A stretch of DNA of 64,000 nucleotides from a bacterium. GTDB lineage: Bacteria > Babelota > Babeliae > Babelales > UBA12409. The notes beneath the pieces were generated by a model. That model was not told where the DNA came from, ran no database searches, and saw only the letters and a list, made by a program, of their open reading frames with translations. Shown here in pieces: positions 3,509 through 47,243 of the stretch. Position 1 is the stretch's first letter. Every line of letters starts with the position of its first letter. Position numbers and translations under genes: made by a program. The stretch lies in the NCBI GenBank assembly GCA_018660415.1, contig JABJKG010000001.1:15530-79529 (forward strand), read 5' to 3'.

Positions 3509-3564
3509 ACAACTTACAATTACTGCTATTTCTTCTATAATTATATTGAGTTTAAATTGCATTA

Positions 3565-4554: not shown

Positions 4555-4735
4555 ATCCAATCAGCGGATCCAGTCAATCATATAAGAAATCGCCAAAGAC
4601 CCCACAGACACATTGTTTCAAATAGAAAACCCCGCGGGCGCGATACAGGCCCACCTTTTGCAATTATCGTGGTTTATTTTATACTTGTATTAAGTTAAAT
4701 AAGCATCAATTGTTTTATTATGGAGGTTTTTTATT

Positions 4736-5260
4736 ATGAAAAAAATTATATTAGGGCTTGCAGCTCTTATCTCAATCGCAACAGTGAGTCTATATGCTGG
4801 CGGTGATTCAAATGAGTCATACCTTTTGCCGTATGACAACGAAACACCTCAACCTAGTGCACCTGTAGCTGAAGTTCTTGATGCGAGCATGCTCACTAGT
4901 ATTGATGGAGAAGTTGGAACCGAAACATCTGACTCTGCTGAAAAAGCTTCCGAAGAATCAGAAGAAAGTGTATTTTCTTTTGTAGGAAATATTACTGACG
5001 AAGCATCTTTGATTGCAAAATCATTATATGGTGTTTGTAAGTCTAACTATAAGACTGCTGCAATCAAGTGTGTTAAATACCTCACACGACGTGACTGTAT
5101 CGTTGGTGGACTTGTTTATGGTTCTACTGTTTATGCAGCCATAACACTCAAAAAAGCTGTAAGTAAAAACTATGTCATCGGTGGTGTTGCTATAGCAGCA
5201 GCCGGAGCCGTTGGTACAGTAATGTACAAAAACAATAAAGCTCGAGCTCAACAAGCTTAA
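4736..5260 (+). CDS. Hypothetical secreted/membrane protein
   Basis: Signal peptide MKKIILGLAALISIATVSLYA, an acidic Ser/Glu-rich segment and a C-terminal hydrophobic Gly/Ala-rich region. GGAGG lies upstream of the ATG. Confidence 0.5.
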   Translation: MKKIILGLAALISIATVSLYAGGDSNESYLLPYDNETPQPSAPVAEVLDASMLTSIDGEVGTETSDSAEKASEESEESVFSFVGNITDEASLIAKSLYGVCKSNYKTAAIKCVKYLTRRDCIVGGLVYGSTVYAAITLKKAVSKNYVIGGVAIAAAGAVGTVMYKNNKARAQQA

Positions 5261-6315
5261 GCCTTTCCCCATAGTTTATGCCAAGCCCATAGTAATACAG
5301 TGGGCTTGGTTTCTTTTTTTGGTACTAAAACCAACTCTTCAAGACTAGTATTCACGATTGCGCCTCCACCTTCAGCTTCTGGTCGTTCTTCCAAAACACC
5401 ATTGAGCTGAAAATAACTATGACCCCCTAATGGAAGTTTCAATGTTGTAAATTGACGATTAAGTCGAAACTCACGAAGCAACGCCCTGGCATCAGCTGAG
5501 CTCTTGTCACCTTCAATTCCATCTACAACTTGTTTTAGCATTTTAAAATAAAACTCTTCCAGCCCTGGCTGCTCCAAGATAGATTTTCCTTGACTCATCA
5601 GATGAACCGGACCACCATTACCCCTGCCATTAGGAAAACTGATTCTTAAACCCGAACCACCTGCACCAACGGCCCGAACAAACCATAAAGTTTGAATAAA
5701 CTCACCATTCATGAGCCTTTGCATCTCAGTATCAATACGACTACGGCGTCCTGTAGTGTGAACAATGGCAACAACAGATAATTGATCACGAGGCATAACC
5801 CTGTTAGAAGCATCTTGTTGCAACTCCTCTAACAAGCCTGGGTCTAAAGATAATTGTGATGCATCAGGCATCGCTACCCGTTCAGAACGTACATGGACTT
5901 CTTCAGGATCGCCAAATACAGGAACATTTCTATGACGGGTACAATTTCTTCCCATATGAGAATTAAATTTTTTGCGAGCTTTTTCAGAAACCGGATTCAA
6001 TCCCCTTAAACTTTTAGGGCGCCCTAGTACTTCAAAATCAACAATGGCAACATTTTTCTGCCCAGGTAACTTAAAACGCTCGGTTAACGATACCGTTTCA
6101 TGAGGATCAAACTCAAATAGTGTTCGCTTAGAACCACATAAAAGTTCTAAAACGGTCGAGTCCTCTTCATCGTCAGAAGAATATACTGAGGAGCTATCAT
6201 CCACCACTCTATTAGCTGCCATAGCAACAGCTAAATCGTTTCTCTTCCACTGATCCCAGGCGCCGGTTAAACTCAATGTCGATAATAATAGAATAAATAA
6301 TGCAGTCTTTTTCAT
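5257..6315 (-). CDS. Hypothetical secreted protein
   Basis: 352-aa ORF with N-terminal signal MKKTALFILLLSTLSLTGA. No recognisable domain. Confidence 0.5.
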   Translation of the reverse strand: MKKTALFILLLSTLSLTGAWDQWKRNDLAVAMAANRVVDDSSSVYSSDDEEDSTVLELLCGSKRTLFEFDPHETVSLTERFKLPGQKNVAIVDFEVLGRPKSLRGLNPVSEKARKKFNSHMGRNCTRHRNVPVFGDPEEVHVRSERVAMPDASQLSLDPGLLEELQQDASNRVMPRDQLSVVAIVHTTGRRSRIDTEMQRLMNGEFIQTLWFVRAVGAGGSGLRISFPNGRGNGGPVHLMSQGKSILEQPGLEEFYFKMLKQVVDGIEGDKSSADARALLREFRLNRQFTTLKLPLGGHSYFQLNGVLEERPEAEGGGAIVNTSLEELVLVPKKETKPTVLLWAWHKLWGKA

Positions 6316-11199: not shown

Positions 11200-11619
11200 A
11201 TGAAAAAAGTGTTAATATTGCTAGCAACATTACTAGTTGTTGGATCAGGTCATGGTATGATGGCGAAAAATATGGGTCAGAAATTGGGCCCTTATACATG
11301 GAATGTCCTGCATCCAGGAAGAAGCTTGTCTAGCTATCATCCTTATCCAATACTCACGTATGCACAACAACAGCGAGAGTGGGATGATGTGAGCAAAAAG
11401 CTAACCGGTATCCGCCAAGAAAAAAATGAATGGTTTGAGCATAAAAAAGCATTAGTAGATCGCCTTCAACGTAGTTCGAATCCACAACACCATAACGTTA
11501 ACTACTTATGGAAAATTCATAATCCCTTGGATGAGCAGTGGAGAGACCTTTCATTACAAGAAAAAATCTACTCTCAATACTTATATAATCTAGAAGAACA
11601 ACTTAAGCGCAGTAAATAA
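11200..11619 (+). CDS. Hypothetical secreted protein
   Basis: Signal peptide MKKVLILLATLLVVGSG. GGAG lies upstream of the ATG. Confidence 0.45.
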   Translation: MKKVLILLATLLVVGSGHGMMAKNMGQKLGPYTWNVLHPGRSLSSYHPYPILTYAQQQREWDDVSKKLTGIRQEKNEWFEHKKALVDRLQRSSNPQHHNVNYLWKIHNPLDEQWRDLSLQEKIYSQYLYNLEEQLKRSK

Positions 11620-11632
11620 CGAAAAAAATTAT

Positions 11633-15804: not shown

Positions 15805-15821
15805 AAATAGCATTTTTTAAT

Positions 15822-15860
15822 AAAAAAGAACGAGACACTTAAAGTAGCTCGTTCTTTTTT
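15822..15860. terminator. Bidirectional rho-independent terminator
   Basis: Perfect stem AAAAAGAACGAG / CTCGTTCTTTTT between convergent genes ending at 15804 (+) and 15946 (-). Confidence 0.6.
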
Positions 15861-15945
15861 ATTAAAAAATAGATCTCAAAATCACTCATGAGAAATAGTT
15901 AGACGCAGAGTTTTTTAAAAATATCTAACTGGTTGTATTTATATC

Positions 15946-16368: not shown

Positions 16369-16529
16369 TTTGATGCCAATTATTTGTTATAGCCTATCTA
16401 CCCATTATATCAGCTGATTCAACCCTTTTCTATCACTTCTTTACACCTTAATCCTCTCACTGTCGACAGTGTATTGCTATTTGGAATTAATTAATGCTAT
16501 TCTTAAAATAAAGGTGAAGTCCATTTGGA

Positions 16530-16730
16530 ATGCAAAATAAGGAAATAGTTGTTATGAAAAAATTACTGTTGTTATCGCTATTTGTTTTAATAGCAGGCAT
16601 ACAATCAACATCATTGTATTCACATAATCGCGTTCACTGCGAAAGCAATAGGGACTGTGAAAACAATACTGGCGATAATAATATTTGTGGATATCTCCAA
16701 AATTATAAAAAGTGTGGTCGCTCGTATTAA
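16530..16730 (+). CDS. Small secreted Cys-containing peptide, hypothetical
   Basis: Internal start MKKLLLLSLFVLIAG gives a signal peptide followed by 4 Cys. A clean terminator follows. Confidence 0.35.
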   Translation: MQNKEIVVMKKLLLLSLFVLIAGIQSTSLYSHNRVHCESNRDCENNTGDNNICGYLQNYKKCGRSY

Positions 16731-16761
16731 TACATACTTCAAGCCCAATACATAATTAAAT

Positions 16762-16800
16762 AAATGTCGGTAGAATTAAACTCTTCTACCGACATTTTTG
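16762..16800 (+). terminator. Rho-independent terminator
   Basis: Stem AAATGTCGGTAGAA / TTCTACCGACATTT followed by TTG. Confidence 0.6.
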
Positions 16801-16963
16801 TCTATTCTTTAAAATCCTAAACTTCAATTGCAAAAATAATCTTGCCAGCTTTTGTTAAGAATCTTGTTTTACAAGAATTCAGCATGCTAGCGTTTACCTA
16901 AATAAGAACTCATAGTATAAAAATAGGTAAAAATTATTATTTTTTATAACAGTTTATGTAATT

Positions 16964-17161
16964 ATGTTAGTCGATATTCAAGTCTATATCGAAACAGACC
17001 CATTATTTTTACGTTCTTGGGTAGAAGATGTAAGCCAATATATTGCAGTACATAATGCGCATCAGCCTGACAAAATAAAACTAATGATTGAAAATGCATC
17101 TCAATCATTAACTAAATTAGAAGGCAAAATTGAATGCAAGGTAGCCACCCCAAAGACTTAA
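16964..17161 (+). CDS. Hypothetical small protein, first of a possible two-gene module
   Basis: 65-aa ORF followed 7 nt later by an unlisted 58-aa ORF at 17169..17345. No recognisable motif. Confidence 0.3.
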   Translation: MLVDIQVYIETDPLFLRSWVEDVSQYIAVHNAHQPDKIKLMIENASQSLTKLEGKIECKVATPKT

Positions 17162-17603
17162 ATTACTAATGTTGCATTGGAATGTTCGAGCAAAAACGCC
17201 AATAATTTGGAGGAACAATCGGTGGCGTTACGACTTCACTTCCCATATCAATAGATTGCAAAGCGTTCATAAAAATAACCTATTCCTAAGTGTGGTGAAA
17301 GTAATGGAACCATCAAAGTTCTTTTTTTCAGTACAAGCACTTTGATTATTAGGACTTGGCAACCCAGCCAATTCGAGCGCTGGTGACGTTTTCTCGATCA
17401 ATGGGGGAACGAGAAGCGTATAGCATAACGCATGCGATACTGAATGTGCCTAGACCAATGAAAATAAAGTGCTTGTTATGCATAGATAGATAGTTTCGAT
17501 TTTTTACTTACTATACTTTCACATAAGAATAGCACTCAAAAATTATTTCACTAGGACCAAGTTTAAAAAAGCGACTCTACTTCAAATAAAGACATACCCT
17601 AAG

Positions 17604-17638
17604 TACTGCCCTCTAGTTGACATGTTTAATCAAAACAA
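17604..17638 (+). repeat. Cassette-boundary repeat R0, degenerate
   Basis: TACTGCCCTCTAGTTGACATGTTTAATCAAAACAA. It shares TACTG...CTAGTTGACA.GTTTA...AACAA with the consensus and overlaps the Fic stop codon. Confidence 0.55.
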
Positions 17639-18708
17639 TTATAGACCTGAGCCAAAGAATAGCTTCTCGTCTTCTTAGATAAGCTCGCTACTTTTAGAAA
17701 TCCATCCTCCACCCATTGTTGAGCTAATGCACGAGCTGTTCGCGGTTTGATTCGTAGAATTGTTGCTATATCACGCGATGTAACAACTTCTTGATCTTTA
17801 AAGATAGTTAATACTGTACGTTGTCTTGCATCGAGCTTTCTCAAGGTCCTTGATTGGTCTTTACTTCCTTTTTTGCTTGCCTTCAGAGCTTGTGCTTTCA
17901 CATGTTCAAAGCTCTTTTCTACTCCAATACAGAAATATGAAATCCATGGAGTTATATCTTCATCTGCACGACCCATATAATAGTTATGACTTCCTACAGA
18001 AAGTGACCCATAATAATCTGTTAGGTTATCAGCATAATAAGCATCCAGGGAGTAGATTCCTTTAAGATCATAACCATATCTATGCAATAAAAAGGTCGTT
18101 ATTAATCGTGCAGTTCTTCCATTACCATCATAATATGGATGAATCGTAGCAAACTGATAGTGAAATATCGCAGCAATCAATGGTATAGGAACCCCTGTCT
18201 CAACTGCATGATTGATCCATTGGATAAGCTCCTTTATCAACGATGAAACATCTGCTGCTTCTGGTGGCAAATAAACAATCCGTCCTGTTGCACCATCTTT
18301 AATGACATTTTGACCATCTCTATATGCCGTTGGTGTCACAGTTTTTCGACCACCACCCATAATCAATGCATGTAATTTTTTTATCATTTTTTCATCAAGA
18401 TGCTTTTTGGTCAGTGCTAAATTCTCTAACCAAGAAAGTGCCTCGTAATATCCAAGAATTTCCTTTTCATCACGCTCTTTACCTCGAAGCCGTTCACCCT
18501 TAAAAAGAACCTCCTCGACCTCCTTCTTGGTCAGACGATTACCTTCAATCTTGGTAGAGTAATACGTCGACTGTAAAGCAGCCGTCTCCCGCAAGGTAGC
18601 TAAAACCATTGGGGTTAGAGGTAGGGATTCAATCTCCTTCGTTAACGCCTCTATTTTCATTAAACAGGTGGCTATAAAAGAGGATATGATATAATTCGGC
18701 TTAAACAT
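17626..18708 (-). CDS. Fic-family protein (AMPylase-type) with N-terminal inhibitory motif and C-terminal winged-helix-like region
   Basis: Fic motif HPYYDGNGRTAR and an upstream S-x-x-x-E-G element (YYSTKIEGN). Confidence 0.85.
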   Translation of the reverse strand: MFKPNYIISSFIATCLMKIEALTKEIESLPLTPMVLATLRETAALQSTYYSTKIEGNRLTKKEVEEVLFKGERLRGKERDEKEILGYYEALSWLENLALTKKHLDEKMIKKLHALIMGGGRKTVTPTAYRDGQNVIKDGATGRIVYLPPEAADVSSLIKELIQWINHAVETGVPIPLIAAIFHYQFATIHPYYDGNGRTARLITTFLLHRYGYDLKGIYSLDAYYADNLTDYYGSLSVGSHNYYMGRADEDITPWISYFCIGVEKSFEHVKAQALKASKKGSKDQSRTLRKLDARQRTVLTIFKDQEVVTSRDIATILRIKPRTARALAQQWVEDGFLKVASLSKKTRSYSLAQVYNCFD

Positions 18709-18813
18709 ACTAGGTCTCCTTTCTTTAATTCCTATGCCATTATTATGCCATTAAACAGCCATTAAATCAAGTCTTATTGTATGAAAAGTAAATCCAGAGC
18801 AGGATTGTAAGTT

Positions 18814-18848
18814 TACTGGCGGCCCCTAGTTGACACGTTTAGGAACAA
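18814..18848 (+). repeat. Cassette-boundary repeat R1
   Basis: TACTGGCGGCCCCTAGTTGACACGTTTAGGAACAA. It is part of an 80-nt stretch identical to 22665-22744. Confidence 0.9.
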
Positions 18849-18930
18849 TCAAATCGAATTTGCTGTTGGTTTAAGCAGTATAAATAAAGCATTTCCGACA
18901 CTGATGTTCAAATATTAAATATGCACAACT

Positions 18931-19224
18931 CTAAAAGGAAATTCTTTGTAATTTATCATAGATTTCTTTTCTATGACCGATAACCAAGATGATAAGAATT
19001 TTCTTATCTTGAATGACACTAAAAACTACTCGATAACCATCTATTCTCAATCTATAAACGTTCTTGTAGCCTTGAAGCTTCTTTATATCTAAACTTTGTT
19101 GAGTAGGTGCAACTAAATCTTTGATCTTGAACACGACTTTCTTATGCTCTAAGGTATCGAGCTTCTCAAGAAATTTTTGTGCTCTTCTTTCGATGATTAG
19201 TCGATATGAAGGATAAGAAATCAT
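18931..19224 (-). CDS. RelE/ParE-family toxin
   Basis: 97 aa with ...YRLRIDGYRVVFSVIQDKKILIILVIGHRKEIY, a typical RelE/ParE C-terminus. Overlaps the upstream antitoxin by 4 nt. Confidence 0.75.
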   Translation of the reverse strand: MISYPSYRLIIERRAQKFLEKLDTLEHKKVVFKIKDLVAPTQQSLDIKKLQGYKNVYRLRIDGYRVVFSVIQDKKILIILVIGHRKEIYDKLQRISF

Positions 19225-19427
19225 TTTTTTAATATTTTTTTGTTTGCTTCATCAAAATCTATGAACTCACCCTCTTCCAAAGCACGCTCGGCTTGCTCTC
19301 CAAAGTATGAATCTTCTAGCTTTTCTACCATTTTTTCAAAAGTGGAAATATCTAAAACAACTTCTATCTTTTTACCAGTACTATCTACAATATAGCGTGG
19401 CTCTATATCCATGGCATCTTTTTTCAT
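19221..19427 (-). CDS. Antitoxin (Phd/YefM-like) of the RelE/ParE pair
   Basis: 68 aa, acidic, with ...VVLDISTFEKMVEKLEDSYF. ATGA overlap with the toxin. Confidence 0.6.
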   Translation of the reverse strand: MKKDAMDIEPRYIVDSTGKKIEVVLDISTFEKMVEKLEDSYFGEQAERALEEGEFIDFDEANKKILKK

Positions 19428-19510
19428 AGTTTCTACCTATATAAAATTAACATTGTAGCTATTTTACTACATTTTCATAAGCTAAACAACAATAGACAAG
19501 TTCTAAGGAT

Positions 19511-19545
19511 TACTGGCGCCCCCTAATTGGCACGTTTAGGAACAA
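19511..19545 (+). repeat. Cassette-boundary repeat R2
   Basis: TACTGGCGCCCCCTAATTGGCACGTTTAGGAACAA, three substitutions from the consensus. Confidence 0.85.
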
Positions 19546-19607
19546 AATAATCATATTTACCCTAGACCATCCAAGCGAACCCCTTCTAAAACTATCTGTT
19601 TAAACTA

Positions 19608-19638
19608 TTGACTTTTGCCGCATATAGTATTACTATAT
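19608..19638 (+). promoter_or_regulatory. Putative sigma70-type promoter with overlapping palindromic operator for the HigB/HigA-like cassette
   Basis: TTGACT-17 nt-TACTAT. The palindrome ATATAGTA-T-TACTATAT (19622-19638) spans the -10 element. Confidence 0.35.
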
Positions 19639-19671
19639 ATAGTAACGACAGTATAAAAAAGGTCCTTGAGT

Positions 19672-20001
19672 ATGAAGAAATGGAAAATCGAATATTGGAC
19701 TCCTGAAAAAGACATTAGTTCCATCGAAAAGTGGTTCGACAAACTTACGAAAGGACAACTCAAATCTCTAGCTAAAGAAATCGCAATGCTTGAATTGGCA
19801 GGCAACCAGCTTAAGCTACCTCATAGTAAAGCGCTAGGAAAAGGATTGTTCGAGTTAAGAGAACGACGGTTTGGGCTTAGAGTGTATTATGGATTTTGTG
19901 GTGAGCTTGTAATCATAATACTTGCAACAGGAAACAAAAGAACCCAAGAAAAAGATATTGTAATTGCTCGTAAACGCTTATTAGAATTTAAGGAGGAATA
20001 A
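19672..20001 (+). CDS. Gp49/HigB-like RelE/ParE-superfamily toxin
   Basis: ...IEKWFDKLTKGQ...LGKGLFELRERRFGLRVYYGF..., the phage Gp49-like pattern. Toxin-first gene order. The track start at 19666 is TTG; an ATG is at 19672. Confidence 0.7.
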   Translation: MKKWKIEYWTPEKDISSIEKWFDKLTKGQLKSLAKEIAMLELAGNQLKLPHSKALGKGLFELRERRFGLRVYYGFCGELVIIILATGNKRTQEKDIVIARKRLLEFKEE

Positions 20002-20004
20002 CTG

Positions 20005-20310
20005 ATGAAAACAAAAAGCTTTCAAGATTATCTCAATAAACGGCTCAACAAACAAGAAATCGCAGAAATTAAGGAGCAAGCACAACGGGAGATTAAAATA
20101 CTTAAATCATTTCAAAAAATACTTGCTGATATGACCAATGAATATATGGAAAAAAATAAAATCGGGTTCAATGAGCTCGCCCGTCTTCTTGCTTCAAGCC
20201 CATCCCAATTGGCAAAAATTCAAAAGGGAGAAGCTAATTTACGCCTTTCTAGCGTTGCTCACCTCTTTGCCCTTATGAATAAAGACCCCAAGGATATTTT
20301 TAGAAAATAG
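20005..20310 (+). CDS. XRE-type HTH antitoxin (HigA-like)
   Basis: AGGAGG RBS. C-terminal HTH segment GFNELARLLASSPSQLAKIQKGEANLRLSSV. Confidence 0.7.
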   Translation: MKTKSFQDYLNKRLNKQEIAEIKEQAQREIKILKSFQKILADMTNEYMEKNKIGFNELARLLASSPSQLAKIQKGEANLRLSSVAHLFALMNKDPKDIFRK

Positions 20311-20355
20311 AAAGTAAAAACAAACAAGCAAATTAACTTTTGTGAGAATTTAACT

Positions 20356-20391
20356 TAACTGGCGGCCCCTAGTTGACACGTTTAGGAGCAA
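20356..20391 (+). repeat. Cassette-boundary repeat R3
   Basis: TAACTGGCGGCCCCTAGTTGACACGTTTAGGAGCAA, with a 1-nt insertion and 1 substitution. Confidence 0.85.
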
Positions 20392-20439
20392 CCAAATTAA
20401 GTTCCATACTAAGTTTAGCCCTACGCCAAAGCCTTTTCA

Positions 20440-20808
20440 CTAGTTTGAGGGAAAAGTTGGTTTTATAATGCGAATGGTTTTTTCTGTGACAACGACAAAA
20501 TTTTCAAAAAGGTCTTCTGAGTGCTTATTTAAAATTCTTTTTAGTACCAAAATTTTATTGGCTGGTTTTTCGTCAATAAGACATAACAACGTAACACCAC
20601 AATGCGGTTTTTTATCTTTGAAAACCATATCACCAAAATCTTTATCGCTGGTGATAAGTATTCTATTTTCTAGTAATGCCTTCTCTAAAACCGAATTATC
20701 ATCGATACCAGCCAATCCATCATCATAGATCGAAATGGCATCATATCCATTGTTAACTAGCCACCTAGCAACACTTGGCCCTACACATTCATCTACGAGA
20801 AACTTCAT
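20440..20808 (-). CDS. DUF5615-family (PIN-like) putative toxin
   Basis: MKFLVDECVGPSVARWL...ILITSDKDFG, recalled as the DUF5615 pattern, placed downstream of DUF433. Confidence 0.7.
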   Translation of the reverse strand: MKFLVDECVGPSVARWLVNNGYDAISIYDDGLAGIDDNSVLEKALLENRILITSDKDFGDMVFKDKKPHCGVTLLCLIDEKPANKILVLKRILNKHSEDLFENFVVVTEKTIRIIKPTFPSN

Positions 20809-20815
20809 ATCCTAC

Positions 20816-21049
20816 CTACGCGGGCAAAGGTGCAAAGGTTGTATCCTCAAGAGCATCTCGTGCAAATGTCAAACATGCAAAAATATCTTCTTTGGTAAGA
20901 TTACTATATTCTTGCACTATCTCTTCCATCGTCATACCTTGTGCCAAAAGACCCAAAACATGTTGAACTGTCAACCGAGTTCCTTTGATGACTGGCTTAC
21001 CAACCATAACTTTAGGATCTACCACAATACGGCTTTTTGTTTCTTTCAT
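20816..21049 (-). CDS. DUF433-family putative antitoxin
   Basis: IVVDPKVMVGKPVIKGTRLTVQHVLGLLAQGMTMEEIVQEY, the DUF433 pattern. Confidence 0.75.
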   Translation of the reverse strand: MKETKSRIVVDPKVMVGKPVIKGTRLTVQHVLGLLAQGMTMEEIVQEYSNLTKEDIFACLTFARDALEDTTFAPLPA

Positions 21050-21155
21050 TTTAACACCTTTCCAAAGTGATAAATCTATTATATTAATTTGTAGTCTACT
21101 ACGAAAACTAATATAAAAAAAGAATACGCCTAGAAAAGTAAAGATATGCTATAAG

Positions 21156-21190
21156 TACTGGCGGCCCCTAGTTGACACGTTTAGGAACAA
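21156..21190 (+). repeat. Cassette-boundary repeat R4
   Basis: Exact consensus TACTGGCGGCCCCTAGTTGACACGTTTAGGAACAA. Confidence 0.9.
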
Positions 21191-21260
21191 CCAAATTGAA
21201 TTCGATGGTAGTTTATACCGCTATAGAATAAGCCCTACTCCTATAAAAAAGTCCTTAATC

Positions 21261-21289
21261 TTGCACAAGTGTGACCTTTATGCTACACT
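21261..21289 (+). promoter_or_regulatory. Putative promoter of the killer/antidote cassette, possibly giving a leaderless transcript
   Basis: TTGCAC-17 nt-TACACT. The -10 element ends 6 nt before the ATG at 21296. Confidence 0.3.
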
Positions 21290-21295
21290 ATAGAT

Positions 21296-21623
21296 ATGAA
21301 GTTAATTGAGATAGTAATTTACGCTACAGACACAGGAAAAGAGCCTTTTTCTAATTGGGAAGATGGACTCGACAAAAGAATGAAAGCCATTGTAATGAAA
21401 CGGCTTGATAGAGTTAGACTTGTAATTTTGGAGATTCCAAACGTCTACAAGGGGCTAATGGTATCTGGGAATTGCGCATAGACCACGGTCCTGGATATCG
21501 AATCTATTTTGGAAAAGAAGGATCAGTGATTGTAATATTGCTTACAGGAGGAGATAAAAAAAACAAACACAAGATATTGCCAAAGCAAAGCAGTATTGGT
21601 TTGAATATAAGGAATCACTATGA
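21296..21623 (+). pseudogene. Addiction-module killer (RelE/ParE-superfamily) toxin disrupted by two frameshifts
   Basis: Three frames join to ...RLDRVRL|GNFGDSKRLQGANGIWELRIDHGPGYRIYFGKEGSVIVILLTGGDKK|KQTQDIAKAKQYWFEYKESL*. The shifts are at about 21422 and in the A8 run at 21556-21563. Confidence 0.65.
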
Positions 21624-21925
21624 AAAAAAAATTAAGAAGCTATCAAGAAAAATTATTAGAAAACCTGCATGATCCAGAACTAGCTTATCATTATCTTAAT
21701 GAAGCACTAGCTGATAATGATCCTCGCATGTTTTTACTTGCTCTCAAAAACGTTCATGACGCTCAAGGAGGCCAAATGACTGAGCTTGCTCAAAAAACAA
21801 ATTTGAGTCGTGAAAACCTTTATCGTATTCTTTCTGAAAAAGGCAATCCCAAGCTAACTAGCATTGTCTCTCTTTTAGATGCTGTAGGATTTTCTCTTGC
21901 AGTTCAACCAAATAAAAAACGATAG
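21620..21925 (+). CDS. Addiction-module antidote protein (HTH)
   Basis: DPELAYHYLNEALADNDPRMFLLALKNVHDAQGG...LSRENLYRILSEKGNPKLTSIVSLLDAVGFSL. Its start overlaps the reconstructed toxin stop (ATGA). Confidence 0.75.
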   Translation: MKKKLRSYQEKLLENLHDPELAYHYLNEALADNDPRMFLLALKNVHDAQGGQMTELAQKTNLSRENLYRILSEKGNPKLTSIVSLLDAVGFSLAVQPNKKR

Positions 21926-21997
21926 TATCAATAATATTTAATAAGTCTCAACAGATATGCATTAAAGCAAACTATAACCTTAATCGTATTTATTTCT

Positions 21998-22032
21998 TAC
22001 TGGCGGCCCCTAGCTGACACATTTAGGAACAA
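21998..22032 (+). repeat. Cassette-boundary repeat R5
   Basis: TACTGGCGGCCCCTAGCTGACACATTTAGGAACAA, two substitutions. Confidence 0.85.
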
Positions 22033-22081
22033 AAAGATCGAGCTTGGAATAGACTTAAAAACAAAAATATTAAATTATAGA

Positions 22082-22372
22082 CTATGCAAAACTTGAAGAT
22101 TGATAAATGTTTTTTCTATGCCCCACTTCAACTATGTAAATAACCAAGCGTTCAGATTCAATGGTATAAATCACACGAAATCTGCCTACTCTTAAACGAT
22201 ATAAAGCTCTGCGAGACTTAAGTTTTTTAATGTCTAAATTTTCACTATTTGTACGCAACTCTTTGATTTTTGTAATTACACGTTGCCTTGCTGATTTATC
22301 CAATGTTTTTAAAAATTTTTCTGCACTCTTAGAAAAAACTATTGTATATGCACCAAAATTGGCATGTGCCAC
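22082..22372 (-). CDS. RelE/ParE-family toxin, paralog of 18931..19224
   Basis: ...LDIKKLKSRRALYRLRVGRFRVIYTIESERLVIYIVEVGHRKNIY aligns along its length with the cassette-2 toxin. Confidence 0.75.
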   Translation of the reverse strand: MAHANFGAYTIVFSKSAEKFLKTLDKSARQRVITKIKELRTNSENLDIKKLKSRRALYRLRVGRFRVIYTIESERLVIYIVEVGHRKNIYQSSSFA

Positions 22373-22373
22373 A

Positions 22374-22595
22374 CTAATCCTCTTCTTTCAATGACTTCTC
22401 TAGCTCGTCAAGAGTACTTCCTTCTTCTTCTGGTCCTCGAGCTAAGATTTTTTCTGCCTGCATGATATCATGCAAATCCTCTAACTCTTCAACCATAGTT
22501 GTGAATGTTTTTAAATCCAATAAAACTTCAGTTTTTTCTCCACTATTATCAACAACATATTTTGGAGCAAGAGTTTCCAGTATCGATGTTTTCAT
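22374..22595 (-). CDS. Antitoxin (Phd/YefM-like), paralog of 19221..19427
   Basis: ...KYVVDNSGEKTEVLLDLKTFTTMVEELEDLHD parallels the cassette-2 antitoxin. Confidence 0.6.
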   Translation of the reverse strand: MKTSILETLAPKYVVDNSGEKTEVLLDLKTFTTMVEELEDLHDIMQAEKILARGPEEEGSTLDELEKSLKEED

Positions 22596-22709
22596 AGAAG
22601 CTTCCTTTCATGAAATATATTTTAATTAATTATAGTATAACATATCCAACAAAAAGATATCGTGAAGTCTTATTGTATGAAAAGTAAATCCAGAGCAGGA
22701 TTGTAAGTT

Positions 22710-22744
22710 TACTGGCGGCCCCTAGTTGACACGTTTAGGAACAA
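22710..22744 (+). repeat. Cassette-boundary repeat R6
   Basis: Exact consensus. It is the end of an 80-nt stretch identical to 18769-18848. Confidence 0.9.
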
Positions 22745-22846
22745 ACAAATTGATTTCAACCTCCATATAAACCCTATAGGTGTCACATTGTAATCATTTT
22801 ATATCAAGCAACAGCTGATCGTTAAACTACTTCCTAATTGCATAGC

Positions 22847-23725
22847 CTAAGCACTGCGTCTATGATCCGCAAGTATCTCATCAATAGTATGCCTAGATCG
22901 TTCGGCTTCGACGATAGTTGTATCGGTAATCCCAGCTACAACTATCAAGGCCTTCCATAAAGCCCAGGCACGACCACGCTCCCATGTTCCAGCATCAAGC
23001 AAAAGCATTGAGCGAAAAGTTTTTCGGCTTTCACTTTCGAATAGTGTCCAGGCAATCGCTAAATCGCAGGCAGGATCACCAACAGCCAGACCTCCAAAAT
23101 CGATAACGGAACTCAATTGCCCCTCTTGTACCAATAGGTTACCAGGACTGATATCACCATGAATCCATACTGGTGAATCGTGCCAAGTGGTTTTAAGCGC
23201 AGTTTTCCAAATTTCGAGCGCAGCATCAACATCGATATCATCCTTCAAAAGAGCTATAGCTTTCCTGGTTTCAGCGTCATAGATGGCTAATGATCCACCA
23301 CGATAAAAGTTATGTGTTCCCGGCAAAGGTCCCCCTTTTGTATCTATACGCTGTAGAACATTAAGAAAATTTGAAAGGCTGATGGCAATGTCATACAGAT
23401 TAGCTATTGATGCATCTGCAATTGTGCGTCCCTCAAGCCAACGATAGATTGACCAGCTCCAAGGATAACCTTTCTCTGGCCCTCCCTGAGCTAAAGGTTC
23501 TGGAATTGAAAGTGGTAGTAAAGATGCCAATCGTGGAAGCCACAACTGTTCTTTTTCTATTTGTACTGCATATTCCGTAGCACTCGGCATACGCACAAGC
23601 ATGCGCTCACCTAGTCGAAAAGTTCGATTGTCCCATCCACTCGGTACAACACGTCTAATGGGTAAGTCCTTCCATTGTGGAAACTGACTGGCTACCAAGC
23701 GGCTCACGAGTGCTTCATTTATCAT
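22847..23725 (-). CDS. Aminoglycoside phosphotransferase (APH)-family kinase
   Basis: Catalytic loop HGDISPGNLLV and VIDFGGLAVGDPACDLA. Confidence 0.75.
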   Translation of the reverse strand: MINEALVSRLVASQFPQWKDLPIRRVVPSGWDNRTFRLGERMLVRMPSATEYAVQIEKEQLWLPRLASLLPLSIPEPLAQGGPEKGYPWSWSIYRWLEGRTIADASIANLYDIAISLSNFLNVLQRIDTKGGPLPGTHNFYRGGSLAIYDAETRKAIALLKDDIDVDAALEIWKTALKTTWHDSPVWIHGDISPGNLLVQEGQLSSVIDFGGLAVGDPACDLAIAWTLFESESRKTFRSMLLLDAGTWERGRAWALWKALIVVAGITDTTIVEAERSRHTIDEILADHRRSA

Positions 23726-23771
23726 TGAAAGGCTTTCTTTTTAAGAACTATCTAACTTTCGTACCCTTGAA

Positions 23772-24860
23772 CTATATACTACCCTTGTCAGATTCAAGCA
23801 GTTTCAATGCGGCAATTACTGCTGGATTTCGATCTGTAAGTAACTTTACTTCTGGTCTAGCTTGTTCATAGGTCTCTTTAAATGCCTCAGATCGAAAAAT
23901 AGCCTGAATAAATGCATCACGCTCGTTGCCCTTAAAAATACCGCCTGTTAAATAAATTGTCTGTTTTTCACAACCTACCCTTTGTACCATCTTACTCAAC
24001 AGGATTCCAAGGTCCTGTGCGGCAGCATGCACAAGTTGCTTTGCACATTCATCTCCCCTCTTGGCCTCCAAAAAAATAGATGGTGCAAGGCTTGCAACCT
24101 GATCTGGTGTTATAGTTCCTTGCTGTAATGGAGTAACCGCATTTTTTAGCTCCATAACGCTTAAGTGCTCTTTAATGAGTGGAATTAAACTCGTTTGCTC
24201 ACCCTCTTCTTGGTCAATTTCTAATGCCTTTTTAATTGCTTGTAGTCCAATGTGATAACCACTTCCCTCATCACCAAGTAATCTTCCAAATCCCCCACGA
24301 ACGATCCTCTTACCATCAACATCTTTGCCAACACAAGCAGATCCTGTTCCGCAAATCAATAAAATCTCTCCTGGTTTAAAGGCTTGAAACATAAGGCCTC
24401 CATCTGAATAAACAAAAAGATTATCGGGTAAAAAACCAATATCATGTAATATTTTTCGAATAGCTAGGTTATTCATTGAGGCTCCTCCCCCAGCAAGACC
24501 AGCAAGACCAGCAAAAATTATCATATCTTTTTTTACATCATCTATAGGAAGCTTTTTATCTCCAACCTTCATACCATTGAATAGAGATTGAAGCCTTTGT
24601 TGCACTCCTTTTTCACCAATTGTACACATATTGGAACCAGGCACCTTCACAGATTCTACTGGCACATCATGCTTGAAAATGGGCACCAGCCTTCCTTGAT
24701 TATCCATCACCTGCATCTCGGTTTTACTTCCACCGCCATCAATACAACAAATATACGTAGCCGATGACAACTTCTCCCTAATCTCCTGAGCTGATGATTC
24801 AAATGCGACTAGATTTGCAATAATAAGTCCTATCTTTAAAACAAATATAGGATGTTTCAT
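23772..24860 (-). CDS. BadF/BadG/BcrA/BcrD-type ATPase (N-acetylglucosamine kinase-like) with N-terminal signal-like segment
   Basis: CIDGGGSKTE phosphate-1 motif, ICGTGSAC, DEGSGYHIG. N-terminus MKHPIFVLKIGLIIANLVAFESSA. Confidence 0.6.
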   Translation of the reverse strand: MKHPIFVLKIGLIIANLVAFESSAQEIREKLSSATYICCIDGGGSKTEMQVMDNQGRLVPIFKHDVPVESVKVPGSNMCTIGEKGVQQRLQSLFNGMKVGDKKLPIDDVKKDMIIFAGLAGLAGGGASMNNLAIRKILHDIGFLPDNLFVYSDGGLMFQAFKPGEILLICGTGSACVGKDVDGKRIVRGGFGRLLGDEGSGYHIGLQAIKKALEIDQEEGEQTSLIPLIKEHLSVMELKNAVTPLQQGTITPDQVASLAPSIFLEAKRGDECAKQLVHAAAQDLGILLSKMVQRVGCEKQTIYLTGGIFKGNERDAFIQAIFRSEAFKETYEQARPEVKLLTDRNPAVIAALKLLESDKGSI

Positions 24861-24869
24861 AGTTCCTCT

Positions 24870-25271
24870 TCAATCTATAATTTCTGGATATTTTTCAGGA
24901 GCAGCTAAACAATATTTTTCGCCATATCCCCCTTCTGGGTGTTCGGCTACACTAACAAACTTGCGTCCTTCAAAACCACCCCGCTCTTGATGCTTCTGTT
25001 TCTGCTTATCCATAACATCCTGCAAGGTAAATTTATTAACTTCACAAAAAGAATCTATTACTTCTAAAACATCTGCTAGCTCTTCGATCAACTCTAATTT
25101 GTCTTTTGCAGCACAAACCTCTTCAGCCTCTTCCATAAGCTTTAGTTTTATTTGCTCTGAAAATTCTTCATCATTGAGTCTTGTCCAAGTAACCTTGGAT
25201 CCTCGTTGCTCAATAAAATTAACCGCATTGTCTCGCCATAGCTTGTGTTGTTTGAATTTACGAAATTTCAT
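24870..25271 (-). CDS. MazG-like all-alpha nucleoside triphosphate pyrophosphohydrolase
   Basis: KLWRDNAVNFI...KLMEEAEEV...EELADVLEVIDS...ERGGFEGRKF. Confidence 0.55.
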   Translation of the reverse strand: MKFRKFKQHKLWRDNAVNFIEQRGSKVTWTRLNDEEFSEQIKLKLMEEAEEVCAAKDKLELIEELADVLEVIDSFCEVNKFTLQDVMDKQKQKHQERGGFEGRKFVSVAEHPEGGYGEKYCLAAPEKYPEIID

Positions 25272-25284
25272 ATGATTTCCTTTC

Positions 25285-25998
25285 TTACACTTTAAGCTTT
25301 GTTGAATCTGTAAATTTCTGATAAGAATTTAACAACCAAATTGAATGAATTGGCTCTTGAAAGGTCTCCTCATACACTGTAATAAAATCGACGAATTTTT
25401 TATGCGCTTGTCGCTTTTCATCATCGCTTAAGTTGCTATTGTCTTCTGGAGCATGATGAAAAAAGTGCCCAAAAACATCGTTTCCAAATTTAGCATATTC
25501 TTTTGTAAATAGGATGAACATGTGCCATAGATTATCAACATCAGTGCTATACATACCCAACCCCTTACACTTATTACCGAGTATAAAATAGCGTCTCAAT
25601 TCTTTGGAAAGAATTTCCATCTCCTCGTCAGTGTATCTAAATGTGGTTTGGCATTTTTTAATTGCATAGTCCATAGGATAATCCAAAGTCTTAAGATCTG
25701 CCCAACTATTTAGCTTCCACGGCTTTCCTTGGCGATTACCAAAATTACATTCTTGAATCTCTATCATTTCTATTTTAGTGGCTGATATGAATTTGGATAC
25801 AATCTCGGCAGTCTGCGAGGCTCTTTTGAGAGGACTATAAAACACATGTGTTATTTCATGTTGCTGAACAATATTTTCATAAGCCTGTCGTACACCAGTA
25901 TCATTAAGCGGTACATCTACCTGTCCCTGACACAGTCCTTCAAAATTCCAGTCCGTTAATCCGTGCCGCATAAAATAAAATGGTTTACGAATGATCAT
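25285..25998 (-). CDS. Truncated histidine-phosphatase domain fused to a GRDP/DUF1399-like domain
   Basis: N-terminus FMRHGLTDWN...PLNDTGVRQA...SPLKRASQTAEIV. C-terminus VDNLWHMFILFTKEYAKF...FFHHAPED. 4-nt overlap with the upstream gene. Confidence 0.5.
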   Translation of the reverse strand: MIIRKPFYFMRHGLTDWNFEGLCQGQVDVPLNDTGVRQAYENIVQQHEITHVFYSPLKRASQTAEIVSKFISATKIEMIEIQECNFGNRQGKPWKLNSWADLKTLDYPMDYAIKKCQTTFRYTDEEMEILSKELRRYFILGNKCKGLGMYSTDVDNLWHMFILFTKEYAKFGNDVFGHFFHHAPEDNSNLSDDEKRQAHKKFVDFITVYEETFQEPIHSIWLLNSYQKFTDSTKLKV

Positions 25999-35626: not shown

Positions 35627-37084
35627 ATGAAAGCCATCCTTATTGCTCGTGTTAGTACCGAAGAACAAAAAGAAGCTGGCAATTCTCTTCCAGCACAAAT
35701 CGCTCGCCTAGAAGCATATTGCAAAAACAAAGGTTTTCCAATAATGGAAATCTGCAGTTTTGATGAAAGTGCCTACTATAATGACCGCACAGAATTCGAT
35801 CGCATTATTGATTTCATCTTGAGTCAAACTGACAAAATAGCCATCTGCTGCGACAAAGTAGACAGGATAACAAGAAATATTTTTGATACACGAATATCTA
35901 CCCTTTATGAAAAAGCCCTCAAAGGTGAACTGGAATTACACTTCGTATCCGATGGACAAGTCATTAACAGTACAATCTCTGCTGTTGAAAAATTTCAATT
36001 CAGTATCAACTTAGGATTGGCAAAATACTATTCTGATGCCATCAGTGACAACGTTAAGCGCGCACAAGAACAAAAACTTCGTAAAGGCGAGTGGCTAGCT
36101 AAAGCACCGTTTGGGTATAAAAACATTAAAAAGGATGATGGTGCCACAGATGTCATTGTAGAAGAATACCAAGCACAGATTATCAAAAAAACATTTGAGC
36201 TCTATGCAACAGGAACCTTCTCAATGGACCTACTCCTAAAAAAACTAAAAATTGAGCATAATGTTTCGTGGCCAAAAGGAACTCTTGGAAAAATACTGAA
36301 CAACCCTTTTTATTATGGAGTCATGCTTGTAAAAGGTAAAAAATACTCACATCGCTATCCCCCACTAATCTCTCTGGATCTTTTTAACAAGGTACAACAA
36401 GTCAAAGAAGTGTTTAATAAAAAACCTGTTAAATATGCAGGCAAAGCATATGTCTATCGTGGCCTACTTCGCTGTGGGCACTGTGACCTATCCATCACTC
36501 CTGAACAACACAAAGGCTATATCTACTACCATTGCACCCAATACAAAGGTAAACACAATGCTAAGTGGCTCCGAGAGGAGACAATTACCAAACAGCTTGG
36601 ACAAGTATTTAAAAAAATGACAATCCCCACAAAAATCGTGGATGAAATAGTTGAAAACCTAAATACTCTCCAACAGGACAAGGTCGACTTTTATCAACGA
36701 GATTTAGACAAGTTCACCAAAGAGCAAAAATCCCTAACCAAGATGCTAGACAATTTATACCTCGATAAACTCAAAGGGAGTATTACTGAGAGCGACTATG
36801 ACAAATTCTACCAATCACTACACGATCAGCTCATCACTATTAACAGTCGTCTCGAACAGTTAGAAGAATCTGACGATAACTACTTTACTACCGCTAAGTA
36901 TGTACTTTCCCTGGCTAACAAGGCTCAGGAATTATTTGAAAGTTCTGAAGTTGATGAAAGAAGGCAATTAATCAACCTATTACTATCGAACGTAAGAGTC
37001 GAAGACGAATACGTGCTCTACGACGTACAAAAGCCCTTCGATCTGATAGTAAATTGTTCTGATGGTCAACTATGGCGGGGCTGA
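35627..37084 (+). CDS. Large serine recombinase
   Basis: N-terminal resolvase motif MKAILIARVSTEEQ, a recombinase domain, a zinc-ribbon-like CGHCDL...YYHCTQY and a C-terminal coiled coil. The stop lies inside tRNA-Asp. Confidence 0.85.
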   Translation: MKAILIARVSTEEQKEAGNSLPAQIARLEAYCKNKGFPIMEICSFDESAYYNDRTEFDRIIDFILSQTDKIAICCDKVDRITRNIFDTRISTLYEKALKGELELHFVSDGQVINSTISAVEKFQFSINLGLAKYYSDAISDNVKRAQEQKLRKGEWLAKAPFGYKNIKKDDGATDVIVEEYQAQIIKKTFELYATGTFSMDLLLKKLKIEHNVSWPKGTLGKILNNPFYYGVMLVKGKKYSHRYPPLISLDLFNKVQQVKEVFNKKPVKYAGKAYVYRGLLRCGHCDLSITPEQHKGYIYYHCTQYKGKHNAKWLREETITKQLGQVFKKMTIPTKIVDEIVENLNTLQQDKVDFYQRDLDKFTKEQKSLTKMLDNLYLDKLKGSITESDYDKFYQSLHDQLITINSRLEQLEESDDNYFTTAKYVLSLANKAQELFESSEVDERRQLINLLLSNVRVEDEYVLYDVQKPFDLIVNCSDGQLWRG

Positions 37085-37149
37085 CGAGACTCGAACTCGC
37101 GGCCTTTCGCGTGACAGGCGAACGCTCTAACCAACTGAGCTACAGCCCC
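37073..37149 (-). tRNA. tRNA-Asp (anticodon GTC)
   Basis: Hand-folded 77-nt cloverleaf GGGGCTG...CTGTCAC...CAGCCCC-G-CCA. Confidence 0.9.
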
Positions 37150-46601: not shown

Positions 46602-47243
46602 ATGAAGTTACAAGTTTCTTTTGATATGAAAGATATTGATAAAGCACTGGATATAGCAAAACAAATAGAACCGTATGTCGATATTTTTGAAATTGGTTCA
46701 CTCCTGATTGACGCTCATGGAGCAAACGTAGTACAACAATTCCGCACCGCCTTTCCAAATAAAACTCTTTTGGCTGATACCAAGATAGTTGATCGTGGTA
46801 ATGAAACTGCAACCCTGTTTTATAATGCCGGTGCTGACTGGGTTACCGTCATGGCCGGCACAAGCGATGAAGTTATTGCGTCCGTATGTCAGGCTGGCGA
46901 CACTGCAGGAAATAAAAAGGTTATGCTCGATTTAATAGATTCAGATTCCTACGCACAATCCGCCCTTGATGCACAAAACCTGGGCGTGGATGCTATCATG
47001 TATCATATGGCACATGATGACCTGGGAAACCAAACTGATTTCTTTATTGATACATGGGAACTTGTCCGAGAAAACACTAAGCTACCTATCTTTATCGCTC
47101 CTCGTAATAACCTTGATGATCTAGAAGAAACAATTTTACAACGACGACCTGCTGGACTCATCATTGGTAGCGCCATTTGTAAGGCTGACGACCCTGCAAA
47201 AGTAGCAAAACATTTTGCACAATTAATCAAAAAGAAAGATTAG
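46602..47243 (+). CDS. 3-hexulose-6-phosphate synthase / KGPDC-family (OMP-decarboxylase fold) enzyme
   Basis: MKLQVSFDMKDIDKALDIAKQIEPYVDIFEIGSLLI...LADTKIVDRGNETA...GADWVTVMAG, closely following the HPS/UlaD pattern. Confidence 0.65.
   Translation: MKLQVSFDMKDIDKALDIAKQIEPYVDIFEIGSLLIDAHGANVVQQFRTAFPNKTLLADTKIVDRGNETATLFYNAGADWVTVMAGTSDEVIASVCQAGDTAGNKKVMLDLIDSDSYAQSALDAQNLGVDAIMYHMAHDDLGNQTDFFIDTWELVRENTKLPIFIAPRNNLDDLEETILQRRPAGLIIGSAICKADDPAKVAKHFAQLIKKKD

Follow-up and report, generated by a model that had tools for sequence, protein, structure and literature searches.

The 64-kb window analysed here (the whole stretch of contig JABJKG010000001.1 under study) carries a composite island at the gene for tRNA-Asp, in the genome of an uncultured Babeliales endosymbiont. 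The island extends from 17604 to 37084 and consists of six small cassettes that lack a recombinase gene and are bounded by copies of a short direct repeat, followed by one autonomous 14.4-kb element (22710-37084) that encodes a large serine recombinase (LSR) and abuts the tRNA gene (Table 1). The flanking TrhO gene is of Candidatus Babeliales (Dependentiae) type, its nearest species representatives being 55-64% identical. The initial annotation had described the repeat region as an integron-like array of seven direct repeats delimiting six toxin-antitoxin cassettes, with no integrase visible. Its layout largely holds, and the evidence below identifies the repeat as an attachment site derived from the LSR gene itself; the island is a toxin-antitoxin cassette stack of non-integron type, probably built by the recombinase.

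Table 1. Features of the tRNA-Asp island, in window coordinates
Feature	Position	Strand	Evidence or remark
R0, distal truncated att copy, TACTG..CCCTCTAGTTGACATGTTTA	17604..17628	+	core-pattern search; nhmmer E 0.0016-0.011; overlaps Fic stop codon
Cassette 1: Fic/DOC-family protein, 360 aa, C-terminal helix-turn-helix (HTH)	17626..18708	-	Pfam PF02661, E 1.6e-19
R1 left extension, 45 nt	18769..18813	+	identical to 22665-22709 (cassette 6 end)
R1, attL-type: tAC, core TGGCGG 18817-18822, P' arm to 18848	18814..18862	+	
Cassette 2: ParE-family toxin 18931-19224, RelB-like antitoxin 19221-19427	18931..19427	-	Pfam PF05016, PF18506
R2, attL-type, 3 mismatches	19511..19559	+	
Cassette 3: Gp49/HigB-type toxin 19672-20001, HTH antitoxin 20005-20310	19672..20310	+	Pfam
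R3, attL-type	20357..20404	+	
Cassette 4: DUF5615 (PIN-like) 20440-20808, DUF433 20816-21049	20440..21049	-	Pfam PF18480, PF04255
R4, attL-type	21156..21204	+	
Cassette 5: broken Gp49-type killer 21296-21672, HI1420-type antidote 21620-21925	21296..21925	+	Pfam
R5, attL-type	21998..22046	+	
Cassette 6: ParE toxin 22082-22372, RelB-like antitoxin 22374-22595	22082..22595	-	Pfam
R6, attL-type; also left end (attL) of the LSR-bearing element	22710..22758	+	
LSR-element cargo: APH, BadF-type ATPase, MazG-like, His_Phos, PAF-AH, DUF6624, two GNATs, DUF2608, unknowns	22759..35626		
LSR, 485 aa, N-terminus MKAILIARVSTEEQ, C-terminus …NCSDGQLWRG*	35627..37084	+	Resolvase + Recombinase + Zn ribbon
attR: P arm (…TTGTTCTGATGGTCAACTA), core TGGCGG 37073-37078, B' arm (reverse complement of tRNA-Asp 3' end)	37048..37100	+	
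tRNA-Asp(GTC), integration target; CCGCCA 3' end complements core	37073..37149	-	

Repeats, cassettes and the LSR element

A search with the 35-nt form of the repeat finds six matches on the + strand, R1 to R6, with 0-3 mismatches each, none being expected by chance (100 shuffles). The seventh copy claimed at 17604 is also real, although truncated, so that the window holds six near-identical direct copies and one truncated copy (R0), with a single addiction module per interval; the third intact copy begins at 20357 and not at 20356 as first given. Alignment of the copies defines a conserved block of ~49 nt (TTACTGGCGGCCCCTAGTTGACACGTTTAGGAACAAnCAAATTGAATTT), laid out in each copy as tAC-TGGCGG-CCCCTAGTTGACACGTTTAGGAACAA. 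Compared with its intact homologue in a related array (L051:3390), R0 has a ~26-nt deletion that reaches the Fic stop codon. Profile hidden Markov models built from 15-25 copies detect no further copy in the 64 kb. An exact 16-mer from the right part of the repeat (AACAACCAAATTGAAT) occurs at 25331-25346 inside the His_Phos gene, with no adjoining core, and is probably due to chance; it scores 32 in local alignment of the repeat with the rest of the window, the maximum in 20 shuffles being 29.

R1 and R6 have in common a tract of 92 nt with 97% identity (18769-18860 and 22665-22756) that includes the end of the RelB/ParE cassette, and the 45-nt left extension of R1 stands in place of ~400 nt found in the Fic cassette of L051. 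Such a tract points to a past deletion or gene conversion. This 92-nt repeat is also where contigs end in several assemblies, probably for technical reasons.

Pfam confirms one module in each of the six intervals. The family names first proposed stand for the Fic, Gp49-HigB/HTH and DUF433/DUF5615 modules and for the killer pseudogene with its antidote, whereas the pairs called RelE/Phd are of the ParE_toxin/RelB-like type. By family and adjacency the two ParE/RelB pairs, Gp49/HTH, DUF5615/DUF433 and the broken Gp49 with its HI1420 antidote are type II toxin-antitoxin modules; the Fic cassette is without a separate partner gene. All are small (0.7-1.2 kb), single-module and mutually unrelated, and cassette 3 has its own predicted promoter (19608-19636, promoter scan). 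The killer of cassette 5 carries two frameshifts, near 21420 and in the A-run 21556-21563, with the antidote gene intact. The array, broken killer included, is base-identical in several independent assemblies, and the window is 100% identical to contig JABJNT010000006.1 of GCA_018664705.1.

The LSR-bearing element is bounded by hybrid attL (R6) and attR sites that have TGGCGG in common with the tRNA-Asp end. Its recombinase keeps all of its Pfam domains (PF00239, PF07508 and PF13408 on 35615-37084) in a truncated 485-aa gene, and the N-terminus is intact, with a motif (MKAILIARVSTEEQ) that, judged from other serine recombinases, should hold the predicted catalytic serine. The C-terminus is cut short by the junction, the 485-aa body staying fused to tRNA-Asp (…LWRG*, 37073-37084). 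Among the cargo, the open reading frame (ORF) at 32331-33452 is conserved upstream of the LSR in two related loci, L049 and L058. The MazG-like gene at 24870-25271 is 39% identical to a site-bounded cassette of another locus (L005 743-1144), and some of the cargo may consist of former cassettes. A 24-nt direct repeat (92%) lies at 34265-34288 and 35607-35630, directly preceding ORF 34289-35104 and the LSR start codon, and may represent a shared leader or ribosome-binding region; no other repeat families are found near the LSR.

The repeat and the end of the recombinase gene

On the + strand every copy of the repeat is open in one frame, reading (Y)WRPL[VI]D[TSAM]FRN[NK]xIE[FL]…, and the WRPL[VI]D[TSAM]FRN frame is open in all 25 distinct copies from 9 loci. 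A stop codon follows 14-44 codons past the Trp codon, upstream stops lie at 0-35 codons, and no in-frame start codon is seen. When copies are compared between species, the minor-allele counts by codon position are 17/14/37, i.e. mostly in third positions, and first-position changes that are synonymous also occur (CTA/TTA for Leu, AGG/CGA for Arg). Past the core the WRPL frame stays open for a mean of 17 codons versus 8-10 in the other two frames; one antisense frame has the same periodicity, but with more numerous and less conservative amino acid replacements as read by eye.

The repeat peptide gives no matches in Pfam, NCBIfam or PHROGs. When 1.84e9 proteins are searched with a profile built from the peptides of the six window copies, the protein P0261 is returned (E 1e-4), together with two short ORFs spanning similar sites. 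P0261 is an internally deleted serine recombinase (MKAIIIARVSTEEQ…DVQKPFDLIVNCSDRIVWRPLVDTFRNNNVVFGVTLQSVQTAFTTFGIQHPMPMV) with an LSR N-terminus and the C-terminus DVQKPFDLIVNCSDRIVWRPLVDTFRNNNVVFGVTLQSVQTAFTTF…. The window LSR ends in …DVQKPFDLIVNCSDGQLWRG*, matching P0261 up to the residues WR, and the R1 peptide aligns with the stretch of P0261 after WR at 55% identity (BLASTP, E 9e-13); in R1 this relic recombinase-tail ORF, WRPLVDTFRNNQIEFAVGLSSINKAFPTLMFKY, extends to 18915. In the DNA the window LSR gene ends …GGTCAACTA TGGCGG GGCTGA, the sequence TGGCGGGGCTGA… at its end being the reverse complement of the tRNA-Asp 3' end, and the repeat reads tAC TGGCGG CCCCTAGTTGAC… at the junction. 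The metagenomic contig that encodes P0261 (L060) has the uninterrupted …CATCGTA TGGCGG CCCCTCGTTGACACATTCAGGAAT…, i.e. an intact P-TGGCGG-P' site, which reads …NCSDRIVWRPLVDTFRN…. The core TGGCGG is common to the repeats, the LSR gene end and the tRNA-Asp end.

The attP site of the LSR thus sits inside the 3' end of its own gene, and integration at the CCGCCA end of tRNA-Asp has split the gene at the TGG CGG (W R) codons. Because the repeat peptide continues the LSR that ends on TGGCGG, and because the uninterrupted version exists in a metagenomic contig, the repeats are identified as attL-type junctions of the LSR, in which a left arm of variable sequence, closing with tAC, is followed by the core and then by the attP P' arm; each very probably consists of that P' arm together with the displaced 3' end, the last ~35 codons, of the LSR gene. 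The serine recombinase 13 kb away is therefore the cognate enzyme, and the integrase reported as missing is present.

When the two halves in the window are joined, the resulting attP shows TGGCGGCCCC enclosed by a perfect 8-bp inverted repeat (GTCAACTA/TAGTTGAC) and by an outer TTGTTC/GAACAA pair, with a dyad symmetry of shuffle p ~0.015 (~0.027 in L049). The inverted TAGTTGAC stretch at the LSR end, which is not conserved in L046 or L057, is understood as the P arm of attP. The junction predicted for the attP of an excised element is …GGTCAACTATGGCGGCCCCTAGTTGACACG, and that for the emptied site is …GTAAGTTTACTGGCGGGGCTGACGAGAC. To the left of the site conservation has a sharp limit, only tAC being kept, and no conserved motif is found in the left arms beyond tAC, the arms being simply A-rich. 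To the right strong conservation ends after ~26 bp, which is roughly one attP half-site of LSRs, and beyond this point it fades, as a relic coding tail would. The first copy in one short contig (L005 691-739) resembles two head-to-head P' arms, GTGTCAATTAGG-TTACTGGG-CCCTTAGTGACAC, and could be an inverted duplication or a palindromic site variant.

The proposed kinship with sedentary integrons fares less well. A true integron remnant, i.e. a cluster of attC sites lacking an integrase (CALIN) with unusually short attC sites, would agree with the confirmed one-module-per-interval layout, the toxin-antitoxin cargo and the lack of an adjacent integrase. However, the hairpin tests failed: 111-nt windows on both strands fold no better than shuffles (z -1.0 to +2.3), and the consensus structure of 15 copies amounts to -0.15 kcal/mol with no covarying stem (RNAalifold). 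R''/R' boxes were not seen on reading the sequence by eye, no formal search having been made. In line with the initial annotation, no tyrosine recombinase was found in the 64 kb (no Phage_integrase-type match among the ~55 ORFs tested), nor was any found beside the arrays of the related loci L004, L043, L051 and L054. The site is moreover a coding fragment of a serine recombinase gene. The array is not an integron or CALIN, a reading that keeps hardly any credence.

A generic dispersed repeat of the repetitive extragenic palindrome (REP) or miniature inverted-repeat transposable element (MITE) kind, or a promoter, operator or terminator placed between genes, is also very improbable. The repeat does contain a perfect TTGACA hexamer and one copy (R2) scores promoter-like, but the scan is inconsistent across copies, with no consistent -10 element and no terminator hairpin, and a promoter or terminator role was rejected. 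The neighbouring genes lie in both orientations relative to the repeat, which has no Rfam match, no copy elsewhere in the 64 kb and, as an exact pattern, 0 matches in 185,579 species-representative genomes (GTDB); in every other locus recovered it either belongs to an array, within it or at its end, or lies upstream of the LSR. A dif/Xer site was ruled out in the absence of a palindrome or a GC-skew switch at the locus, the repeat alone having no dyad symmetry, and a tRNA- or tmRNA-derived repeat was rejected since ARAGORN finds nothing at the repeats. It is the negative outcome of the fold, Rfam, promoter/terminator, dyad, GC-skew and tyrosine-recombinase tests together that sets the repeat apart from integron or CALIN sites, dif sites and REP/MITE-type elements.

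Related loci and the turnover of cassettes

The exact pattern is present in five metagenome contigs, and more copies were recovered through protein-guided look-ups; an exact-pattern scan of viral contigs gave 0 matches for the site and for the attP junction. In all recovered loci the copies lie in a single orientation and bound small units, so that the repeat is confined to cassette boundaries wherever it has been recovered, unlike a dispersed repeat. Four copies stand beside a tRNA Val-Asn-Asp cluster in L004/L043 (P-loop kinase, RelB/ParE, ParE/RHH, then MerR), and six occupy the window-equivalent chromosomal position in L051/L050 (TrhO-DUF1761 … APH-PAF-AH; the units being RHH/ParE, a 160-aa ORF, Fic, ParE/RelB and a transpeptidase-like gene). 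In L054 three diverged copies and one weak copy abut tRNA-Asp (RHH/ParE, a 3.1-kb NUDIX+methyltransferase+ADK unit, Gp49/XRE), and two copies are found on each of two short contigs, L001 (1.4 kb; an AdoMetDC-like unit, then RHH/ParE) and L005 (1.3 kb; a MazG-like unit). Degenerate distal copies occur in at least two arrays (R0 of the window and L004), and the weak outermost copy of L054 may be a third. No site was found in L045, where a ParE homologue is present. A candidate analogous array in another Dependentiae metagenome-assembled genome (L012 15660-19810), with 4-5 repeats spaced 650-1850 nt, was rejected: its repeats are the conserved 5' ends and signal peptides of a paralogous secreted-protein family.

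The cassette sets differ among the window, L051, L004, L054, L001 and L005, and the cassettes that are shared are repeat-bounded; i.e. the arrangement across related species is not an invariant one. Shared cassettes lose homology inside the sites and are 77-92% identical, versus 65-75% for the flanking housekeeping DNA. The RelB/ParE cassette 6 matches L004:10588-11341 at 91.8% over 756 nt, with a backbone of 70.7% over 7.6 kb, and its homology ends inside both flanking sites. Against L051, with a backbone of 69-75%, the Fic cassette 1 is 88.7% identical (3445-4605) and the ParE/RelB cassette 2 is 82% identical (5008-5747), and the Gp49/XRE cassette 3 is 80% identical to L054:13631-14268, where the backbone is 66-72%. 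The neighbours of a given cassette change from one species to another, and this, together with an identity so far above that of the backbone, apparently implies recent transfer of site-bounded units between species.

Homologues of the LSR form >120 clusters across Babeliales, at 63-74% identity and mostly of exactly 485 aa. The LSR stop overlaps the tRNA-Asp 3' end in four genomes (the window, L046, L049 and L057), and the downstream synteny is the same in the last three. Between relatives the nucleotide identity of the LSR is ~71%, equal to that of the backbone, and this equal divergence suggests a long-resident gene of mostly vertical inheritance rather than a recent arrival. A number of longer homologues (P0031, P0060, P0064, P0066, P0077 and P0080) end in peptides such as WLGRKDSNLRMPGPKPGALPLG that resemble reverse-translated tRNA T-arms; judged from these peptides, further tRNA genes may have served the family as targets.

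Relative to the LSR, every site lies upstream and on the same strand. L049 has a single diverged copy 6 kb upstream on that strand (E 3e-10), and in L058 a weak match, again on the LSR strand, is found at a distance of 4.7 kb upstream (nhmmer E 1.8), with 32/46 positions in common with the L049 copy by hand count. In L058 (11447-14288) the LSR is 507 aa long, and its TGGCGG is set apart from tRNA-Asp by a 2.7-kb segment without an LSR and with two ORFs (180 and 647 aa); the segment ends AAGTA-TGGCGG-tRNA-Asp, and its P'-like junction is diverged, of weak similarity and missed by the profile. This segment has the appearance of a second unit that entered at the tRNA-side junction and gave the LSR a long tail again. 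The last cassette of L004 and L054 meets tRNA-Asp through the usual …AAC-TGGCGG or …TAC-TGGCGG junction. L049 also contains a 32-nt direct repeat (91%) at 3913-3944 and 11599-11629, one copy 20 nt left of the att site and the other between tRNA-Asp and tRNA-Asn, which may mark older island boundaries.

In the window, the 1.2 kb to the left of R0 (16369-17603) contain small ORFs only and no long ORF, and no gene remnant was detected there; a 66-aa Cys-rich secreted peptide at 16530-16730 has weak defensin-like matches. Further out, a near-perfect 29-nt palindrome (15812-15870; 93% complementary, arms 1 nt apart) probably serves as a terminator in both directions for the DUF1761 and NUDIX genes, which converge on it. 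The window also encodes an ATP-dependent DNA ligase (Pfam DNA_ligase_A_N/M/C; 48641-50389) and two ankyrin-repeat proteins (3565-4554 and 47240-48631), proteins of the latter kind being common in described Dependentiae (PMC6561590).

Proposed cassette movement and comparison with known systems

Beyond the identity of the site, the partition of the gene and the turnover of the cassettes, all directly observed, the LSR itself appears to build and exchange the cassettes, a reading to which a probability of about 65% is assigned. The initial annotation had allowed for cassettes that depend on another kind of site and recombinase, a suggestion that is supported. Under such a scheme the cassettes would be miniature hitch-hikers that, as circles, carry one X-core-P' site each and that the LSR would insert in trans, using either the tRNA-side junction or the attL of the island or element. 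The LSR element would excise by attL x attR recombination, yielding a full-length LSR whose tail comes from whichever attL copy was used and leaving an X-core-tRNA site such as is seen in L004 and L054; cassettes could then enter the freed site and the LSR element re-enter last. The oldest units would come to lie distally and decay (R0), with the newest next to the element (cassette 6), and loss of a cassette would be countered by its toxin-antitoxin cargo. Re-entry of the element as the last step would explain why it adjoins the tRNA, why cassette 6 is the most recent-looking (92%) and why, at the distal end, units are either inherited in common with L051 (Fic, ParE/RelB) or in decay (R0).

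Several observations weigh against movement by the LSR. No circle, empty site or variant junction is seen in the available assemblies and contigs, and the window species is clonal: it is present in dozens of metagenome assemblies with an array that is base-identical wherever examined, no population variants being seen inside the species. Canonical LSRs are known to recombine only attP x attB, with two full sites, and to require a directionality factor for excision, whereas the cassette sites have one recognisable half-site and none in their left arms. The attP dyad is weak or absent (not significant) in L060 and L058. Conservation and synteny of the LSR extend across Babeliales, for the most part to members without a known array, so that its main role may be another; conversely L004 and L054 carry arrays with no LSR at the locus. 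Finally, the portion of the genome inspected is 64 kb, and another recombinase could lie elsewhere.

That another recombinase encoded elsewhere in the genome, e.g. of Xer or other tyrosine type, moves the cassettes, the likeness to the LSR site reflecting only the landing of the first element, would fit this last point. Recombinases of xer type are reported from another member of the Dependentiae, Chromulinavorax (PMC6561590), and a weak ACTGG-N6-CTAGT dyad is present in the left part of the site. However, what is conserved in the repeat corresponds to the LSR attP from core to P' arm, the locus shows neither a dif-like palindrome nor a GC-skew switch, and no tyrosine recombinase was found in the window or beside any array examined; this alternative is quite improbable.

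The main rival to movement by the LSR takes the repeats as fossil attL scars: full LSR islands would have integrated repeatedly and decayed, the cassettes now being immobile, the LSR inactive on them, and shuffling confined to RecA-dependent homologous recombination or gene conversion between repeats of ~50-100 nt. The 92-nt R1/R6 tract, with 45 nt beyond the site, resembles a conversion or deletion product, and the T/C variant in GTT[T/C]AGG is uniform within a genome and differs between genomes, suggesting concerted evolution; both favour some gene conversion. Invariance of the array within the species and decay of the tail ORFs in many copies also agree with scars. Yet island decay would leave LSR P arms (…CTA-TGGCGG) or random deletion end points, and not the uniform sharp tAC-TGGCGG left boundary that is found; the cassettes are small, single-module and unrelated to one another; the same cassette appears beside different neighbours across species at an identity far above the backbone; and within the close clade the P' arm is nearly invariant even at synonymous positions, against a backbone only ~70% identical. 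The scar explanation is accordingly judged unlikely, and movement of the cassettes by the LSR is preferred.

The stack has a close counterpart in layout in the staphylococcal cassette chromosome (SCC/SCCmec; CcrAB/CcrC at rlmH), where the recombinases are likewise of the large serine family and several elements accrete in tandem at one chromosomal site, with direct att-core repeats between elements and with recombinase-less units, presumed mobilised in trans, beside an enzyme-bearing unit; here six LSR-less cassettes lie beside an LSR element. Unlike SCC, the target is the 3' end of tRNA-Asp and not rlmH (orfX), the repeat is a fragment of the recombinase gene and not of the target gene, and the cassettes are single toxin-antitoxin modules of 0.7-1.2 kb in a Babeliales endosymbiont. 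With integrons, sedentary chromosomal integrons and CALINs the array shares an ordered series of small one-module cassettes, a recombination site in one orientation, distal decay, toxin-antitoxin cassettes with their own promoters, and a resident recombinase that diverges with the backbone (~70% nucleotide identity) while the cassettes look horizontally exchanged. It differs in that the enzyme is of the serine and not the tyrosine (IntI) type, that the site is double-stranded and unstructured rather than a folded single-stranded attC, and that no attI or Pc lies beside the recombinase gene, which sits at the tRNA end of a 14-kb element.

The partition of the gene recalls the SSV1-type "suicidal" tyrosine integrases of archaeal viruses and plasmids, in which att lies inside the integrase ORF, a C-terminal fragment is left at the far end, and, as would be the case here, excision restores the full gene. 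Self-disrupting recombinases were known only in Archaea according to a 2021 review (PMC8371274); here, by contrast, the host is bacterial, the enzyme is a serine recombinase and only the last ~35-38 codons are detached. Since the 485-aa gene keeps all Pfam domains, is conserved at 63-74% and is of uniform length across Babeliales, the truncated LSR is, as far as its sequence tells, probably not "suicidal".

Islands at tRNA genes, such as the cis-mobilizable elements (CIMEs) associated with ICESt3 and the tycheposon islands of Prochlorococcus, likewise target a tRNA 3' end, stack elements at one tRNA, contain integrase-less units flanked by att repeats and form a hypervariable island beside a conserved tRNA cluster; theirs, however, are tyrosine integrases with repeats made of tRNA fragments, whereas the tRNA contributes no more than 6 nt (CCGCCA) to the present repeat, all else being recombinase coding sequence. 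Phage-type integrases (phiC31, Bxb1, A118) have the same Resolvase, Recombinase and Zn ribbon architecture, an attP of ~50 bp with a short core, whose imperfect dyad has a candidate parallel in the window and L049 sites, and hybrid attL and attR sites; they differ from the present case, where attP is inside the gene, the element has no phage genes, and tandem attL-type sites occur that are not expected from canonical unidirectional enzymes.

The array combines SCC-like accretion, integron-like arrays and an archaeal-style partitioned integrase, and fails the defining tests of each family. More tentatively, and with somewhat less than even confidence, it might be regarded as the equivalent, in bacteria and with a serine recombinase, of the integron and of the archaeal self-partitioning integrase alike, in which excision of a long-resident LSR element against alternative attL copies would swap C-terminal tails and switch between integrated and excised states, the same LSR exchanging half-site-bearing toxin-antitoxin and enzyme cassettes between Babeliales species. 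A literature search found nothing on cassette arrays or on an LSR of this kind in Dependentiae. If the reading is true, gene-cassette platforms would no longer be confined to integrons but would include one run by a serine recombinase on ordinary double-stranded att sites, and the LSR would provide the first bacterial and the first serine-type integrase with its att site within its own gene, compared with the restriction to Archaea in PMC8371274. For the development of genome-engineering tools there would be interest in so compact a serine integrase, which has a defined ~50-bp attP, uses a tRNA as attB and might accept half-site substrates. For the organisms themselves the array points to a route of gene exchange among the obligate intracellular Dependentiae, in which mobile elements are almost undescribed.

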